Shown here piece by piece: positions 42,314 through 54,003 of a DNA stretch of 64,000 bases. The position numbers were made by a program, and so were the translations under genes. The DNA is from Brevinematales bacterium (GTDB taxonomy: Bacteria; Spirochaetota; Brevinematia; Brevinematales; JAOACQ01). The notes below the pieces were generated by a model. The model was not told the DNA's origin, searched no databases, and saw only the letters and a program-made list of their open reading frames with translations. The DNA lies in assembly GCA_020052515.1 (NCBI GenBank), contig JAGVOW010000016.1, positions 162 through 64,161 on the forward strand, written 5' to 3'. The stretch's first letter is position 1; each line of letters starts with the position of its first letter.

Positions 42314-43718
42314 TTAGTGATTATGATGCCGAAGGGGGGCATTGTTTAATTGATTTTTCATAAAAGACTTTATTCCATTCTTATCCTCATTACGAATATT
42401 ATTCCTGAATTTTACTTCGATTGGTATTCTATGTTGTCCCGTGGTCAATACAAAATCTACTTCTGGTTCATTATTTCTTTCAGGGAAATAAGATATATCT
42501 AATCCATGGATGGATGATAGCATAGACCCCACAATGCTTTCAGCTAAGTGACCGGCAATGGCATCTTCCGCCTCATTGCTATTGTTGCCGGTTAAAGAAA
42601 TATTTTCCTGCAGCCAGATGGCCCTCAAGCTATGATCGGCAAGGCATATTTTTGAATTACTTTTTTTCTTTTTCAGCCGGATTTCCAGCGGTTTGATTAA
42701 AATTATTAAAAGAGTATCATTTAGAAATTTTGGATAGCTGGTAATCCTTTGGGGCCCAATATTAGCGTGCAGGGTGCCTCGAAGTTCTTCCAGCAATGTT
42801 CTGATTCCGGGAGCCTGTCCCGCATATCTGCATCCAAGCCTGAATAAATTCTTCCAGTAAAGCAGAATCTCGCTTCCGGCCTTTTTCACCCAACCGTAGA
42901 TCATGCAGAATTACCCGGTGGATAATATTTTCATTTAACTGATCGGCTATCTGGGGCCATTGGGCGGTTTTGATATGAGCTATTGGATAGGCCCCTAGAT
43001 CGGAGAAGAGTTGAAAAACAGTATCCCGATATTCACGATTAGCTATCCCGTATTCCGCTAAACCTCTCCAGAATTCCTTTTTAAACAAGATAGTTAAACC
43101 ATTGTCCGGCAAATAAGGATCGGGGGATTTCATGCCTCTGATAGCGCCTATTTCAGTCAGTGAAAGAGGCGCGGCATTGATAGTCGAAATCCTTCCCGCC
43201 AGGCTGTCTCGCCCTTTCTCAATTCGAAGGGCGGAACTTCCGGTTACTACCGCTTTGACGCCCGTTGTGTCCAGCATTAGTTTCAACTGCGGTGCCCAGT
43301 TTTCTATATTTTGAATCTCATCCAGAAAAAAATAAACCTTTTCTCCTTTCCGTATTATGGCATTAACCCGTTTTTTGATAACTTCCTTTTCATACCATGT
43401 CAATAAACCCAAAATTGGGTTTTCCATTTTGAGTATTTCGTTGATTTCATCAAACTGAACCCAGAAAATATTAAGCGGCGGAATCCCGGAGTCTAAAAGA
43501 TCGATGATGAGTTGTTTAAGGCTGGTCGTTTTTCCGATCTGGCGACTTCCACGTACAACCACAGCGGGCGCCAATCCGGAATCCAGCCTTTTTTTAATTT
43601 GAGTTACCAGATGTCTTCTGAATGGAGGCGCCAGAGGCCTGGCAGAAGAATCCTCCCACCATTCATTCATACGCCGAAGCTGTTCTTTTAATATTTCGTC
43701 AATCATATTACCCTTCAC
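42314..43718 (-). pseudogene. AAA+ ATPase with DUF4143 C-terminal domain, split by a +1 frameshift
   Basis: ORF 42762..43718 carries Walker A 'GSRQIGKTT'. ORF 42314..42904 carries 'EPEVDFVLTTGQHRIPIEVKF'. The frames join at ...DSALLEE|LFRLGCRYAGQ across a 3-nt T run (plus-strand aaa, 42846-42848). Confidence 0.7.
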
Positions 43719-43790: not shown

Positions 43791-45539
43791 TTACTCCACT
43801 CCATTATCAATTTTTAAATTCCCTTTCGAAGGCTCATTACCGTAAAAATCAAAAAAATCTTTCATGGTGTGAAGGTGTTTGATGTTGTGATTTAAGTAAT
43901 CAGGCAAAGAAAATAGCTGGCCTTTGTCGTTTAAAAAATCGTGTATGTGCCGGATAGTTATTTTTTCTTTCTTGCAGAAACCCTCAATGGATTTCATTAA
44001 TTGGGGGTCAAAAACCAGAAAAGTGTGCGGTTCTATTTCGATAATGTGATTCTTAAAATGGTCTTTAATTTGAAAGGAATAATGAGCGTTAACCTGAATA
44101 ATCTGGTAAGAATCCATCTTATCCAGAGAAAGGCTGTTAATAAGGCTTTCTATCCCTTCAGCCACGTTTTGCGGCAAGGCATGCTTTGAGTGAGCTTTCA
44201 AAAACTCCAGTACTTCTTCTTTTTTTATCCCATAAGCAAAAGAGCGGTAAATAGATTCTTTTGTAATCTTGAATAAAGAGACAGTTTGTATAGTCAGAGG
44301 TTCGGCAATAATGGCCAGCTTGAACAATATTTCCGGTTTCAAATAGGGCTCTACTATTACTTCATAATTTGCTTCCACAATGAAATTATCCTCAGAAAAG
44401 TGTCCGCCAAAATCCACGTGGTTTAAAAGGGAAGCATGCGGTTCATTCATAATAATAGCGTCTTTTGCTATGGAAATTGTGCCCGGGCTGCCTCTCTGCA
44501 GAGTAGCGATATTTTCTACCTCCAGGCTTTTGACAAAAAGGACAAAACGAAGTTCTTCCTGTTGAAGCAGCAGTTTCAGGCTTTTTGCTTCATTTTTTAG
44601 GGCAATATAAATTTCATTATTCAGATAATAGAAAAAGAGTTCCCGCAAAGGGATGCATTTTTTGTCGACATAGGAGCGGAGGCCCAGAATTTTTAAAGTC
44701 ATAAAAGCGCTTTTGCGGAAATCAAACTTGTCCATAAAATCATATAGGAAAATAATGAAGAGCTGTTCGTTAATAGATAGTTTTAAAATAGAATCTAAGA
44801 GAGATTTATTTAAAATGATCCGGTTGTTAAACTTCTGAAAAAAGCCAAAACGGCAGAGTTTTTTGATAAGTGTTTCCAGCTCATTCTTTTCTCCAAAATC
44901 GGCAAAAAATTCCAGCATCTTTGCGAGGTCAATTTTATGAATTTCGTTGGTCTCAGAGCTTCGCGGAGCGAAATTGATCACATAAGAAATAAATCCGGCA
45001 ATCAAAGGGATATAATGGGCCGTGAGCAGGTCTTTCCCGGAGATTCCGCAATAGGTCGCAGGATGATTGTTCAGTATGCGTTCGGCTTCTGCTGACGGGT
45101 TAATATTTCTTAGAAATATAGGAGGCGAGAAGAAAAAATTATACCGCTTGAGCCGTTCGTATTTAAAAAGAAGAAATTTTTTAAATAGTGAATTCAGAGA
45201 AGCCGACAATTCATCAGGATGAAAATGAAAAATAGTGGCGATGATTTTTAAAGTGGATTCAATATTATCATAAACAATCCAGCCAAACCCGTTTTTCATA
45301 ATATAAAGGAGCAATTTTTCTGCGTTCGAAAGAGACCCATAAAGTTCGAGGGCATTCTTTGAAATAAAGTCCGAAACCTGGTTCAATCTTTTGCGGTTTT
45401 CCTCGCCGTCATAAGACATTTCCATGTCTGAATGGAAGAAATAGTCATAAATTTTTTTTACCAATTGCGGCTCTTCCTGTATCATCCAGTCCGTTACGGT
45501 AACATTGCTCAATTGGCTGGTATCTTTTCCTTCTAACAT
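43791..45539 (-). CDS. XPB-associated protein with p52/Tfb2-like regions
   Basis: 582 aa, 11 nt downstream of the XPB gene. 'FIVEANYEVIVEPYLKPEILFKLAIIAEPLTIQTVSLFKITKESIYRSFAYGIKKEEVLEFLKAHSKHALPQNV' parallels human p52 '[69 protein letters not shown]..LPPTI' (recalled from memory). 'LIKKLCRFGFFQKFNNRIILNKSL' parallels p52 'LQHLREFGLVFQRK..YYPTRLA'. Confidence 0.45.
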   Translation of the reverse strand: MLEGKDTSQLSNVTVTDWMIQEEPQLVKKIYDYFFHSDMEMSYDGEENRKRLNQVSDFISKNALELYGSLSNAEKLLLYIMKNGFGWIVYDNIESTLKIIATIFHFHPDELSASLNSLFKKFLLFKYERLKRYNFFFSPPIFLRNINPSAEAERILNNHPATYCGISGKDLLTAHYIPLIAGFISYVINFAPRSSETNEIHKIDLAKMLEFFADFGEKNELETLIKKLCRFGFFQKFNNRIILNKSLLDSILKLSINEQLFIIFLYDFMDKFDFRKSAFMTLKILGLRSYVDKKCIPLRELFFYYLNNEIYIALKNEAKSLKLLLQQEELRFVLFVKSLEVENIATLQRGSPGTISIAKDAIIMNEPHASLLNHVDFGGHFSEDNFIVEANYEVIVEPYLKPEILFKLAIIAEPLTIQTVSLFKITKESIYRSFAYGIKKEEVLEFLKAHSKHALPQNVAEGIESLINSLSLDKMDSYQIIQVNAHYSFQIKDHFKNHIIEIEPHTFLVFDPQLMKSIEGFCKKEKITIRHIHDFLNDKGQLFSLPDYLNHNIKHLHTMKDFFDFYGNEPSKGNLKIDNGVE

Positions 45540-45550
45540 AAAAGCCGCCT

Positions 45551-47248
45551 TTAATCCGAAGATTTTAGTTCTAGATCCGGTATGGACAGAGCCTCTTCCT
45601 TTTCCGGGTAATGAATAATTGAATAGTGGTAACCCTGCTCTAACAGGAACATCTGTCTTCTTCTGGCAAATTCTTCTTCCAGGGTATCTCTGGATACCAG
45701 TGAATAGAAATAAGCCTTGCAGGACTCCGGCCTTAATATTCTTCCAAGCCTCTGGGCTTCTTCCTGTCGGGACCCAAATATGCCGGAGACCTGTATTGCC
45801 ACATCCGCGATCGGCAGGTCAATAGAGAAATTTCCCACTCTGGAAACAATCAATGCTGGTATTTTATTATTCCGAAAATCGCGGTACATTATTTCTCTTT
45901 CATGGTTCGGCGTTTCCCCTGTAATCAATGGAATACCGAAAATCCGGGAAATTTCCTGAAGCTGGAAGATGTAATGGCCAATAATCAGAATGTGATTTTC
46001 TTTGTGGAAATGGAGCAATTTTTCCAGAATTTTCAGTTTATTAGGATTTTCTGAGGCGATCCGGAATTTCTGTCTCTGGGAGGAACGCAGGTATTCAAAA
46101 GAATTGCCTTCATTGAGGGGTATTTTTATTTCATAACAATAGGCTGTCGCTATCCAGCCTTCTTTTTCGAGGGCCTTCCAGGAATATTCGTAAATTTTCG
46201 GGCCGATCAGCGTAAAAACTTCTGTTTCCAGATTGTCTTCCCTGACCAGTGTGGCTGTTAAACCAAGTCTTCGCTTGCCTTGAATGAAAGTGGTCATGCG
46301 GAAAATAGGCGCCGGTAAAATATGCACTTCATCATAAATAATAAGGCCCCAGTTTTTCTCAGTAAATATGCCGATGTTGCGCATTTCCTCGCTTCCGGCA
46401 TTTTTATGAATCAACATATTATAAGTTGTGATGGTTACCGGCTTGATGATTTTCTTCTGCGCGGTGTATTCGCCTACATCATCCGGGTTTAAGGAAGTTT
46501 TGTCTAAGATTTCTCTTGTCCATTGACGGATCGCTTCGACGCTGGTAGTAATAATGAGGGTATATTCTTTTATCTCATTCATAATACCGATGCCTACGAT
46601 GGTTTTGCCCGCGCCGCAAGGAAGTACTACAACACCGCTTCCCTCTTTCCATCTCATGAAGTTTTCAATGGCTTCTTTCTGATAATACCTGAGAGAAAAC
46701 CCTTTCTCTTCTAAAGAGTTTTCTCTCAAGTGTAGTTCCAGTCTATTTCCGCTGTCAAAACCAGCTATGTCCTTGACGGGTATCAGGTGCTTGATTAGCT
46801 CGTTCTTGATACTGCCGCGATTTTGTTTATCGATGATCAGAGTGTTTTCCGGGCCTTTCTTTACTATATACTGCTGAATCAGGCCTTCCACTTTTTCGAA
46901 AAGTTTTTCATCTTTTATTTCAATTAGAATATTTTGAGGGTCTTTGCTTTTTAATACCACTTTTCCATAGATAGAATAATGCCGTTCAATGTATTCAAGA
47001 ACATTCTTTGGTATATCAAACTTTTTATAATTTTCCAGACAGGAAATAATGCCATCCAATGGAATGCCGTTCGCGGCTGAATTCCAGAGAGAAATGGGAG
47101 TAATACGGTAAAAATGGATGTGCTCCGGTGTTTTAGAAAGCTCAGAAAATCCTATCAGCCTTTTTCTCACTTCTTCAAATTGAGGATGATGAGTGTCCAA
47201 AAGGATTGTTTTGTCAGATTGCACAGCAATAACTTTGTTTTCTTCCAT
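45551..47248 (-). CDS. XPB/Ssl2/Rad25-type SF2 DNA helicase-translocase
   Basis: N-terminal XPB-type domain ('PEHIHFYRITPISLWNSAANGIPLDGIISCLENY...SIYGKVVL'), Walker A 'LPCGAGKT', 'IYDEVHILPA' and RED motif 'TATLVREDN'. Confidence 0.85.
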   Translation of the reverse strand: MEENKVIAVQSDKTILLDTHHPQFEEVRKRLIGFSELSKTPEHIHFYRITPISLWNSAANGIPLDGIISCLENYKKFDIPKNVLEYIERHYSIYGKVVLKSKDPQNILIEIKDEKLFEKVEGLIQQYIVKKGPENTLIIDKQNRGSIKNELIKHLIPVKDIAGFDSGNRLELHLRENSLEEKGFSLRYYQKEAIENFMRWKEGSGVVVLPCGAGKTIVGIGIMNEIKEYTLIITTSVEAIRQWTREILDKTSLNPDDVGEYTAQKKIIKPVTITTYNMLIHKNAGSEEMRNIGIFTEKNWGLIIYDEVHILPAPIFRMTTFIQGKRRLGLTATLVREDNLETEVFTLIGPKIYEYSWKALEKEGWIATAYCYEIKIPLNEGNSFEYLRSSQRQKFRIASENPNKLKILEKLLHFHKENHILIIGHYIFQLQEISRIFGIPLITGETPNHEREIMYRDFRNNKIPALIVSRVGNFSIDLPIADVAIQVSGIFGSRQEEAQRLGRILRPESCKAYFYSLVSRDTLEEEFARRRQMFLLEQGYHYSIIHYPEKEEALSIPDLELKSSD

Positions 47249-47285
47249 GAACCCTCTTCTATAGCCGAATAAAAAAAGATGTTTA

Positions 47286-47314
47286 TTTTAATAAAACCTT
47301 TTTATTTAGTCAAA
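47286..47314 (-). promoter_or_regulatory. sigma70-type promoter of the XPB operon
   Basis: The minus strand reads TTGACT-N17-TAAAAT. The -10 element ends ~38 nt upstream of the XPB ATG. Confidence 0.5.
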
Positions 47315-50534: not shown

Positions 50535-50780
50535 TTGACTTCTTTTTTAACTCCTTATTCTTCGAATATCGGCAGGGCCATCCTGAAAGAACCCAAGCTT
50601 TATTTTTTTGACAATGCTCTTGTTCAGGGTGATGAGGGCGTACGTTTTGAAAACCTGGTTGCTTTATGTCTCTATAAGTCTGTTTTATACCGAAGAGACC
50701 AGCTGGCAGAAGAAATAGAATTGAAATATATCCGGACTAAGGATAAAAAAGAGATTGATTTTACTCTTGTAAAACAAGGA
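50535..50780 (+). pseudogene. C-terminal fragment of a second DUF4143 ATPase gene
   Basis: 'KEPKLYFFDNALV...GVRFENLVA...KYIRTKDKKEIDFTLV' is the DUF4143 tail only. There is no ATPase domain upstream, and the frame runs into the rsmA 3' end. Confidence 0.5.
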
Positions 50781-50787
50781 ACTACGG

Positions 50788-51591
50788 CTATAAATCCCAA
50801 AACAACCGCTCCCACTTTTCTACTTCCACTTCCTCCGGCCGGATAGAAAGCGGAATGCCTGATTTTGCCAATATTTCCGGCGAAATTCCAGCCTGCTTTA
50901 AGTTATTGGACAGCGTTTTTCGTCTCGATTGAAAAGCTTTCCTTAAAAAGGAATTGAATTCCTCCTGAGGAAGATCGCAGAGCTTCTTTTTTAACTTCAC
51001 AACCATAGAATCAATAGAAGGCGCCGGGAAAAAGCATTTTCTTCCCACAGAGAAAAGAGGCGTTATTTCCAGATAATAATGAGACAAAATGCTCATGACT
51101 CCAAAATTTTCTTCTCCCGGCATAGCCTTCATTCTTTGTACAAAATCGCTCTGGAGCATTACAATTCCTTCATCAAAAATTTTTTCTTCAATAAATCTTT
51201 TGACCGCCTCGCCGGAAATGGAATAGGGAAGATTGGAAACAAAAAACAAATTTTCTTCTTTCAGTTGAGAAAAGTCATAAGAAAGAAAGTCGCCATGGAT
51301 CATGGTGAGATGGGGATGGGAAAGAAAATCTTTCAGAACGACATAAATGCCCCTGTCAATCTCAATGGAATAGGTCTTATGATTTTCTATTAAAAGCATG
51401 GTCAAAGCGCCCAAACCACTGCCGACCTCAAAAAGGGCTGCGTCCTTTGAAATGTTAGCAATGATTTTTTCAGCGGTATTTCTGTCAATCAAGTAATTCT
51501 GGCCCCTTTTTTTCGAGAGATGCAGATGGTTTTGCTCCAATACCTTCGACACAAAATGGAGAGAGAAGGGATTGTATTCCAGATTTTTCAT
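50788..51591 (-). CDS. rsmA: 16S rRNA (adenine1518/1519-N6)-dimethyltransferase
   Basis: 'KKRGQNYLID' and 'EVGSGLGALT'. Confidence 0.9.
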   Translation of the reverse strand: MKNLEYNPFSLHFVSKVLEQNHLHLSKKRGQNYLIDRNTAEKIIANISKDAALFEVGSGLGALTMLLIENHKTYSIEIDRGIYVVLKDFLSHPHLTMIHGDFLSYDFSQLKEENLFFVSNLPYSISGEAVKRFIEEKIFDEGIVMLQSDFVQRMKAMPGEENFGVMSILSHYYLEITPLFSVGRKCFFPAPSIDSMVVKLKKKLCDLPQEEFNSFLRKAFQSRRKTLSNNLKQAGISPEILAKSGIPLSIRPEEVEVEKWERLFWDL

Positions 51592-52644: not shown

Positions 52645-54003
52645 TTAGTCAAATGAGGGTAGCTGAAAAAAACTTTTTAAATTTGGAGAGGGGTAATAAT
52701 ATTTATTTCTGCCCACTTTTTTAACAAGTAAAAAACCCTTTTCTCCCAAAATTTTGAGGTCTTTGATCGCCGTTAATTTTGATGTCCTGTAAATATTTTT
52801 GTGGATGGTCGGTGTTGTTTTATCCTCAGGATGTTCGATGAAATGTTCCAATAATTCTATCTGCCTCTGGTTTAGCCCAAAACGGACCGCTAAATCTTCT
52901 TTTTTCGCGCGTTTTTCCTCATTCTTTTGCAAATAATTTAAAAAATGCTCAATAGAAGCCTGAATTTTCAGCACATTATAATTGATAAAATAGGTCAGGT
53001 CATGATCATCCTGTTCGCTATAGAGATAAGCCTTTTCATATTGCGCTCTGGATTTTAATAATAGCGACGAAAATGACAAATAAAAAAATACCCAATAGCC
53101 CTTTTTTATTAAATACCAATAGAATAAAATCCGGGCCAGCCTTCCGTTTCCGTCACAGAAGGGATGAAGATACCCAATCCAGAAATGAATCATAATTGCT
53201 TTTATTAAAGGATGAATAAATGGCTCATTATCCTCATCGTTGGCGAAACGAATGAGGCGGTCCATCTCTTTTTCAACAAACTCAGCCTTCGGAGGGATAA
53301 AATAGATTATTTCGCTATCTTTGCTCACAACAATGTCATCATGATCGTTTCGGAATCTGCCGATATCTTTTTGGTCCAATGTGTTTTTGGTTAAAATTTC
53401 ATGGATTTCGAAAAGAAGACTTTTTGACAGTTTTTTTTCTTTGTATTCTTCATCAATTAATTTCATCGCCTGATAATTGTTTAATATCATTTGCTCTGAT
53501 TTATCTCGGGGTTTTCTGCCGGTTCGGATCATTTCTTTTGCCATTTTTCTCGTGGTGTTTGCGCCTTCCAGCTGTGATGACGCTATAGATTCTTCCAGGA
53601 GGCCTTTAGCTCTGAATTTGTTTTTTATTTTTTCATTCGGCTTTTCAAAGCCCAGTTCTAACAAATCTTTAAATTTTCCGGCGAAATTTAAGTCGATAAA
53701 ATGGAGAAATTTTTCCATAGAGGGAAGTTTTATCCAGGTAAAAAACTCTTGATTTTCATTTTTAATGGGGGTTTTTATAGATACCGCTTTCCGGTATTCT
53801 TTGACAGCAATCCAGAATTCTTCTTTATGCTTTATCTCATCCGGCATTTTATATTTGAGTTTGTCCCAATAGAGGTATTCCGGTTCAAAAGCTAAAATTT
53901 GGTAATTTTTATATGTCTGAGCAATTCTCAACTGAATATAAGTTTCGAGTTTAGATTCACGGTATTTTTTAAGATTTGGTTTTTCAATTTGAACTATTTT
54001 CAT
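52645..54003 (-). CDS. Fic-family protein with intramolecular inhibitory motif (class II-like) and C-terminal wHTH
   Basis: Active site 'HPFCDGNGRLAR' (HxFx[DE]GNGRxxR). There is an upstream 'SSQLEG' [ST]xxxE[GN] motif. The C-terminus reads 'LKILGEKGFLLVKKVGRNKYY'. Confidence 0.85.
   Translation of the reverse strand: MKIVQIEKPNLKKYRESKLETYIQLRIAQTYKNYQILAFEPEYLYWDKLKYKMPDEIKHKEEFWIAVKEYRKAVSIKTPIKNENQEFFTWIKLPSMEKFLHFIDLNFAGKFKDLLELGFEKPNEKIKNKFRAKGLLEESIASSQLEGANTTRKMAKEMIRTGRKPRDKSEQMILNNYQAMKLIDEEYKEKKLSKSLLFEIHEILTKNTLDQKDIGRFRNDHDDIVVSKDSEIIYFIPPKAEFVEKEMDRLIRFANDEDNEPFIHPLIKAIMIHFWIGYLHPFCDGNGRLARILFYWYLIKKGYWVFFYLSFSSLLLKSRAQYEKAYLYSEQDDHDLTYFINYNVLKIQASIEHFLNYLQKNEEKRAKKEDLAVRFGLNQRQIELLEHFIEHPEDKTTPTIHKNIYRTSKLTAIKDLKILGEKGFLLVKKVGRNKYYYPSPNLKSFFQLPSFD

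Follow-up and report, generated by a model that had tools for sequence, protein, structure and literature searches.

An XPB helicase gene and its p52/Tfb2-like partner in a Brevinematales genome

The 64,000-nucleotide stretch of DNA analyzed here (hereafter the window; positions 162 to 64,161 of contig JAGVOW010000016.1, NCBI GenBank assembly GCA_020052515.1, a Brevinematales bacterium) contains two adjacent minus-strand genes, one encoding a 565-amino-acid (aa) DNA helicase of the XPB type and the other a 582-aa protein that resembles p52/Tfb2, the XPB partner in the eukaryotic transcription and repair factor TFIIH. We consider it probable that this locus encodes a two-subunit XPB motor, consisting of an XPB translocase/3'-5' helicase and a co-transcribed p52/Tfb2 homolog. 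An XPB-p52-type reading had already been proposed in an initial annotation of the window, made from the sequence alone, and it is supported by the analysis described below. Homologs of its proteins likewise place the organism in Brevinematales (Spirochaetota). The analysis establishes the identity of XPB, the homology of the partner to p52, which at the family level extends from the winged helices through clutch and linker into the C-terminal domain, and a linkage between the two genes that is both tight and widespread.

The XPB helicase and the p52-like features of its partner

The predicted product of the upstream gene (45551..47248, minus strand) is unambiguously a bacterial-type XPB/ERCC3/Ssl2 DNA translocase/helicase of superfamily 2. 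It scores 744.4 bits against an equivalog cut-off of 610 for the NCBIfam model NF045503 (DNA repair helicase XPB), with residues 7-544 aligned to profile positions 2-547/548, and Pfam places Helicase_C_3 at residues 8-120, ResIII at 184-335, and ERCC3_RAD25_C at 360-551. The initial annotation had described two open reading frames (ORFs) of these lengths separated by 11 nt, together with a full set of XPB signatures, and all of these were found exactly where it had placed them. The XPB N-terminal domain (residues 8-120; 46889..47227, minus strand) matches PF13625 with an expectation value (E) of 1.2e-21, and the helicase core motifs, positioned by script within 46235..46624 of the same strand, comprise the Walker A sequence LPCGAGKT at residue 209, DEVH at 306, and RED inside TATLVRED at 331-338. 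The best matches in the PDB were yeast Ssl2 (E 1e-88) and human XPB (E 3e-82), and archaeal XPB (E 4e-43) reached about half the score of the eukaryotic chains (151 versus 301 bits). The window protein differs from eukaryotic XPB in lacking the eukaryotic C-terminal extension.

The partner gene (43791..45539, minus strand) follows directly downstream. The 11-nt spacer between the two genes (aggcggctttt, 45540..45550, minus strand) begins, as read from the sequence, with a Shine-Dalgarno-like AGG/GG, and no terminator was found between the genes. A sigma-70-like promoter candidate, TTGACT-N17-TAAAAT, is located at 47285..47313 (minus strand) in the 106-nt gap separating a flgG-like gene from XPB. 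The initial annotation had reported this promoter one base away, at 47286-47314; the site was recovered and, with a 10/12 match, is the best in the region, but statistical support for it was not, as the 12 promoter-like sites in the scan compare with 9.3 expected by chance from shuffled sequences, an unremarkable excess. The candidate is plausible only because it is placed in the sole intergenic gap upstream of the pair.

Databases label members of the partner family "hypothetical" or "helicase-associated domain-containing protein". By itself the window protein contains one significant Pfam domain, PF13625 at residues 386-468 (E 5.9e-14, 52.6 bits versus a gathering cut-off of 34.2), and its p52/Tfb2-like character emerges from an AlphaFold2 model (predicted local distance difference test, pLDDT, 80.3; predicted TM-score, pTM, 0.75), Foldseek comparisons, and synteny. 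Residues 1-330 (44550..45539, minus strand) form a helical N-terminal region followed by winged-helix repeats, according to predicted secondary structure, with helix-plus-hairpin units at residues 218-244 and 321-364 of the model. The first of these units consists of a helix at 218-231 and strands at 235-237 and 240-244, and it includes the LIKKLCRFGFFQKF block, which begins at residue 224, and RIILNKSL at 240. Residues 333-478 (44106..44543, minus strand), delimited by hhalign, Pfam, and the family profile, hold the wing of the last winged helix, the clutch (the PF13625 match at 386-468, with FIVEANYEVIV at 386 and ITKESIYRSF... at 425), and a linker helix in which P456, V459, and I463 are invariant. 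Model topology and the family alignment define residues 479-565 (43845..44105, minus strand) as a C-terminal beta-alpha-beta-beta-alpha domain, the core topology lying at 479-524, with an extra strand and a long helix.

One further feature of the partner is the sequence PRSSExNExHKID at residues 192-204 (44928-44966, minus strand), which is invariant in 26 Brevinematales orthologs and falls in a loop with AlphaFold pLDDT below 50 at residues 192-200. No alignable counterpart of it was found in p52, and the motif may have a function or mediate an interaction.

When the full-length partner model was compared with the PDB by Foldseek, the best 19 matches were all p52/Tfb2 chains (E 2e-9 to 1e-4, approximately 540 aligned columns, nearly the full length), followed by XPB chains at E of approximately 2e-3 and, far behind, by multi-winged-helix proteins. 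These alignments had low TM-scores (0.20-0.28), which is to be expected when multi-domain chains are flexible. At the sequence level, the initial annotation had aligned the clutch block with human p52 by eye. A single-sequence HMMER comparison gave the same alignment, which was not significant alone (E 0.4-0.7), and the similarity became significant through the PF13625 match, through a profile of 26 orthologs that matched yeast Tfb2 333-418 at E 2e-4 (XPB N-terminal domains ranked lower, at E 0.008), and through hhalign. In the last of these comparisons the window family aligned with p52/Tfb2 at 91.8% probability and E 7.3e-7, with partner residues 333-478 placed on p52 261-406. An alignment built from 74 diverse bacterial relatives reached 98.0% and E 2.8e-13 over 262 columns, covering p52 174-450, a span that takes in two winged helices as well as clutch, linker, and the C-terminal domain that binds p8. 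The human p52 sequence used for these comparisons was verified as 100% identical to PDB 28jm_D, and the human p8 and yeast Tfb5 sequences were likewise verified as 100% identical to PDB chains; yeast Tfb2 was taken from printed alignments. An 86-aa yeast Tfb2 fragment used as bait in a protein database returned fragments only, and the verified sequences were used instead.

The hhalign results also revise the register of the winged helices. In the initial annotation, partner residues 224-247 had been paired with p52 262-287, which turned out to be one repeat off: partner 223-250 falls on p52 ~174-205, and the counterpart of the p52 262-287 wing is partner ~335-365. The window-family alignment accordingly puts the partner wing at 335-365 onto p52 261-290, and the wider family puts two winged helices onto p52 174-290, with the partner from approximately residue 220 onward aligned with p52 174-260 at the family level. 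The window-family alignment ends at residue 478, and alignment of the C-terminal domain up to p52 residue 450 comes from the wider family only, so that model topology and family alignment, and these alone, suggest residues 479-565 as the putative counterpart of the p8-binding domain of p52. The Pfam Tfb2 model was matched at E<=0.01 by 34 of the 74 distant relatives, three of which passed its gathering score, with 43.7, 38.9, and 34.7 bits at profile positions ~240-357.

Conservation of the gene pair and a small upstream ORF

Synteny of the partner with XPB in other genomes, on which the initial annotation had staked its reading, was observed from both directions. Starting from the partner, XPB is immediately upstream in 19/19 Brevinematales loci recovered with it, and 7/9 distant partner relatives, which share little beyond the clutch with the window protein, adjoin an XPB gene. 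Three gene orders occur among these distant pairs, with the partner after XPB, before it, or divergent from it. In the reverse direction, from XPB genes of annotated replicons, 5/6 bacterial loci have a partner next to XPB, in Paenibacillus, Deinococcus, Actinomyces, and two cyanobacteria; the cyanobacterial partner is labeled "hypothetical" because it scores just under the Pfam cut-off. Altogether, most of the loci sampled from Clostridia, Paenibacillus, Deinococcus, Actinomyces, cyanobacteria, and metagenomic lineages show the pairing. No XPB-partner fusion proteins were found among the long relatives searched. A Haladaptatus XPB-like helicase (locus L036, 3282-5129) has neither the PF13625 N-terminal domain nor a partner nearby. 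One XPB-adjacent relative, P0162 (locus L026, 4001-6088), aligns with the window partner in pairwise BLAST only at the clutch and carries the Pfam domain PF27388, "TP_0021_N", which takes its name from a protein of Treponema pallidum; the partner may therefore exist in spirochaetal pathogens as well.

Long relatives of the partner span ~810-916 aa, and most of those sampled end in a WYL domain. In total, 9 of the 74 sampled relatives have this C-terminal domain (including P0056, P0100, P0138, and P0143, and those at loci L028, L037, and L038). WYL domains are ligand- or nucleic-acid-sensing modules of bacterial regulators, and their fusion here hints that damage or signal sensing is joined to the p52-like scaffold.

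Directly upstream of the long relatives, in every locus where it was found, is an unannotated ORF of 66-99 aa (L021, 4655-4855; L022, 272-472; L028, 3781-3984; L029, 1441-1656; L032, 5732-6031, from Deinococcus; L037, 5001-5204; and L038, 5001-5204). The gene order in L028, L037, and L038 is small ORF, partner, XPB. The family comprises 29 clusters, all unannotated, and the small ORF aligns over its full length with the C-terminal domain of the partner family (hhalign 97.2%, E 3.8e-11). By this alignment its predicted product is a paralog of the partner C-terminal domain, mirroring the relationship of p8/Tfb5 to p52. Direct similarity to p8/Tfb5 is suggestive only: Pfam Tfb5 was the top match of one member, below cut-off at E 0.009, four other members had no Pfam match, and hhalign against p8/Tfb5 gave a colinear but non-significant alignment (E 0.014, probability 3%). 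Since both lines of support are marginal, we do not claim direct p8 homology. Pentatricopeptide-repeat matches of the small ORF in the PDB were judged spurious. The p8-like ORF is absent from the window and from all Brevinematales loci, and its hidden Markov model does not match the window partner protein. Two of the loci, on unrelated metagenomic contigs, have a DnaB helicase gene with two inteins (Intein_splicing plus LAGLIDADG) adjoining the small-ORF/partner/XPB operon (L028, 1-3417; L037, 400-4479).

Proposed mechanism, competing readings, and genomic surroundings

Recruitment of XPB to TFIIH depends on the pseudo-symmetric pairing of its N-terminal domain with the homologous clutch of p52 (PMC6422496), and p52 stimulates the XPB ATPase, according to work cited in PMC3353954. 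By analogy, the clutch of the bacterial partner would pair beta-sheet to beta-sheet with the homologous N-terminal domain of XPB, forming a pseudo-symmetric heterodimer that would tether XPB and tune its DNA-dependent ATPase, while the winged-helix array could provide the DNA or protein contacts that direct the motor. We infer such a heterodimer because the N-terminal domain and the clutch are encoded 11 nt apart and are co-inherited across phyla; physical binding and ATPase stimulation would be expected from the comparison with TFIIH. The most likely role would be in chromosomal DNA repair or in the rescue of stalled transcription or replication, and not in phage defense, with the particular pathway being a guess. 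Mycobacterium tuberculosis XPB has DNA-dependent ATPase, 3'-5' helicase, and strand-annealing activities (PMC3353954), and transposon insertions in ercc3 cause hypersusceptibility to rifampin (PMC10534295), both of which fit a function in repair or at the interface of transcription and repair.

Several observations weigh against this two-subunit reading. Against a gathering cut-off of 34.5, the Pfam Tfb2 model gives the window partner itself 16.6 bits, over residues 418-452 only, so that profile comparison bears out the XPB N-terminal-domain fold and, at the family level, the p52 relationship that the initial annotation had proposed, but not through the protein's own Tfb2 score. Its first ~200 residues show no significant similarity to p52, either in hhalign profiles or in a separate model of residues 1-330. 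This model (pLDDT 74.6) had no PDB match at E<=1e-3; p52 chains appeared at E 0.05-0.2, holding ranks 8, 10, and 12 (E 0.05-0.09), among winged-helix proteins of the PaaX/MarR type. Full-length p52 homology is therefore not claimed. In pairwise comparison, the clutch and C-terminal domain resemble the XPB of the window no less than they resemble p52, and XPB 40-172 and partner 416-545 are detectably paralogous (27% identity, E 5e-7), so part of the p52 signal reflects a shared XPB N-terminal-domain fold. The linker motif LPxNVxxxI is not specific to p52, since the XPB of the window carries it too. As the clutch, linker, and following subdomain are common to XPB, they cannot by themselves discriminate p52 from a paralog of the XPB N-terminal domain; what is specific to p52 is that winged helices precede the clutch, that no helicase core is present, and that the architecture as a whole is colinear. 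Linkage, too, has exceptions: Tsukamurella XPB (L035, 3480-6369) has no adjacent partner and is abutted by a DUF222-HNH element, and two long relatives (842 and 864 aa) are not adjacent to XPB. Finally, M. tuberculosis XPB needs no partner for its activity in vitro (PMC3353954).

Some of these observations would also suit an unlikely alternative, in which the partner acts independently, as a DNA-binding winged-helix regulator that shares the XPB N-terminal-domain fold, forms no complex with XPB, and controls transcription, for example of the operon or of a damage regulon. Its N-terminal region alone is as similar to generic winged-helix regulators (PaaX, MarR) as to p52, WYL domains of the kind found on 9/74 relatives are typical of ligand-sensing regulators, and the two long relatives have no XPB beside them. 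What speaks for the two-subunit motor over a free-standing regulator is colinear p52 homology over ~260 columns that include the clutch and C-terminal domain, strict adjacency to XPB in 19/19 loci at a translationally coupled spacing, the retention of the pairing through three gene orders, and the joint absence of N-terminal domain and partner in the one haloarchaeal XPB described above. The precedent of archaeal XPB, which pairs with an adjacently encoded Bax1 (PMC7293015, PMC13024598), could instead suggest that the partner is a Bax1-like nuclease forming a helicase-nuclease machine. This we regard as scarcely credible: neither Bax1 nor any other nuclease family was matched by the partner at E<=1 in Pfam or NCBIfam, its top structural matches were all p52 with no Bax1 chain among them although XPB-Bax1 structures are present in the PDB, and the contact site of Bax1 on XPB is the ThM/HD2 region and not an N-terminal domain (PMC13024598).

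A third alternative, that the pair is an anti-phage or mobile-element defense module, derives from the gene next to it. The initial annotation had noted a decayed DUF4143 ATPase and linked it to possible defense. The gene is real: overlapping ORFs at 42762-43718 and 42314-42904 match the N- and C-terminal halves, respectively, of a single model, the PADLOC candidate PDC-S01, and together represent a frameshifted AAA_14 plus DUF4143 ATPase gene (42314-43718, minus strand). The link to defense did not stand. In relatives a PTS-EIIA gene and a Germane-domain gene come directly after the partner, and the ATPase gene is absent from that position in 19/19 Brevinematales genomes, making it a lineage-specific decayed insertion between the partner and PTS-EIIA, outside the module. 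A defense function might also be read from a weak likeness of the XPB helicase core to PbeA (91 bits) and from XPB-partner pairs that in some cases reside on a large secondary replicon, with transposases and an integrase close to one of them (Acaryochloris). XPB, however, matches PbeA in its generic helicase core only, no PADLOC model matches the partner, a tblastn comparison with 72,556 plasmids and 50,697 phage records found no homolog of the partner, and 43/45 XPB-bearing "plasmids" are non-mobilizable large replicons. The surroundings of the pair are those of core housekeeping genes, with gyrA, the flgG-like gene, and an acetolactate-synthase-like (ilvB-like) gene in the window, and gyrA, PTS-EIIA, and the Germane-domain gene are kept downstream. 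We therefore reject the defense reading as highly improbable.

Elsewhere in the window, a 103-aa ORF at 50535-50846 (plus strand) matches DUF4143 at profile positions 61-150 of 160 (E 2e-8), and is thus a second, likewise degraded ATPase copy of this kind, ~7 kb away. Near these DUF4143 remnants is a gene for a 452-aa Fic/DOC-family protein (52645-54003, minus strand; Pfam Fic E 4e-19) with the motif HPFxDGNGR.

A broader proposal, which we hold to be possible but doubtful, is that bacteria possess a true homolog of the whole TFIIH XPB arm with the same pseudo-symmetric domain pairings as in eukaryotes, comprising XPB and a p52-like scaffold together with a p8/Tfb5-like subunit in some lineages, and that this reflects either a bacterial source at eukaryogenesis or a very ancient transfer. 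Brevinematales would then have the two-protein form. The greater similarity of the bacterial XPB to eukaryotic than to archaeal XPB, combined with the presence of the N-terminal domain, would make the module the source of the TFIIH translocase arm or the record of an ancient transfer. Only the XPB-p52 arm is present, so the locus does not amount to a TFIIH core, and in this respect the expression "TFIIH-core-like" used in the initial annotation was overstated: none of p62, p44, p34, XPD, p8, or CAK is evident flanking the pair in the window, and no XPD, p62, p44, p34, or p8 was found in 38 related loci.

Comparison with known XPB systems

Bacterial XPB is already known, and the partner family has been catalogued only under its helicase-associated label. 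We found no description of a bacterial XPB-p52-like pairing, or of any bacterial XPB partner, in the openly searchable full-text literature, a scope that leaves subscription-only work aside; a 2026 review calls bacterial XPB function elusive and mentions Bax1 as the sole prokaryotic partner (PMC13024598). If true, an XPB-p52-like pair conserved in bacteria and optionally joined by a p8-like subunit would offer a minimal and genetically tractable system for studying how a clutch regulates XPB. It would explain why bacterial XPB retains an N-terminal docking domain that Archaeoglobus fulgidus-type archaeal XPB lacks (PMC3353954), as do the haloarchaeal XPB sampled here by Pfam, and it would bear on the origin of the TFIIH translocase arm. 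Biochemical work on mycobacterial XPB alone may also have missed a natural cofactor.

The characterized bacterial XPB proteins, from M. tuberculosis (Rv0861c/Ercc3) and Kineococcus radiotolerans, belong to the same equivalog family as the window protein and resemble it in having an N-terminal domain and helicase core with no C-terminal extension (PMC3353954), and differ in that they were studied alone, without a partner. The archaeal XPB-Bax1 system shares with the window the arrangement of XPB encoded beside a dedicated modulating protein, but Bax1 is a nuclease that binds ThM/HD2, whereas the window partner has no nuclease signature and is built around a clutch that resembles the XPB N-terminal domain. 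Multi-winged-helix scaffolds such as RNA polymerase III RPC62/RPC82 and PaaX have similar tandem winged-helix repeats and appear as weak structural matches; unlike the partner they have no clutch or C-terminal domain, and their E-values against the full-length model are 6-7 orders of magnitude worse than those of p52.

The closest parallel is the XPB-p52(-p8) arm of TFIIH (GTF2H4/p52, Tfb2, PF03849), where an XPB bearing its N-terminal domain likewise stands beside a partner without a helicase. In both systems the partner combines winged helices, a clutch with the XPB N-terminal-domain fold, a linker helix, and, as topology and family alignment suggest for the window protein, a beta-alpha-beta-beta-alpha C-terminal domain. 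The window partner is 120 aa longer than p52 and has an additional strand and helix at its C-terminal end, no match links its first ~200 residues to the p34-binding region of p52 (residues 1-173), and the long bacterial relatives carry WYL domains that p52 does not have. The third member of the arm, p8/Tfb5, is mirrored in some bacterial lineages by the small paralog of the C-terminal domain.

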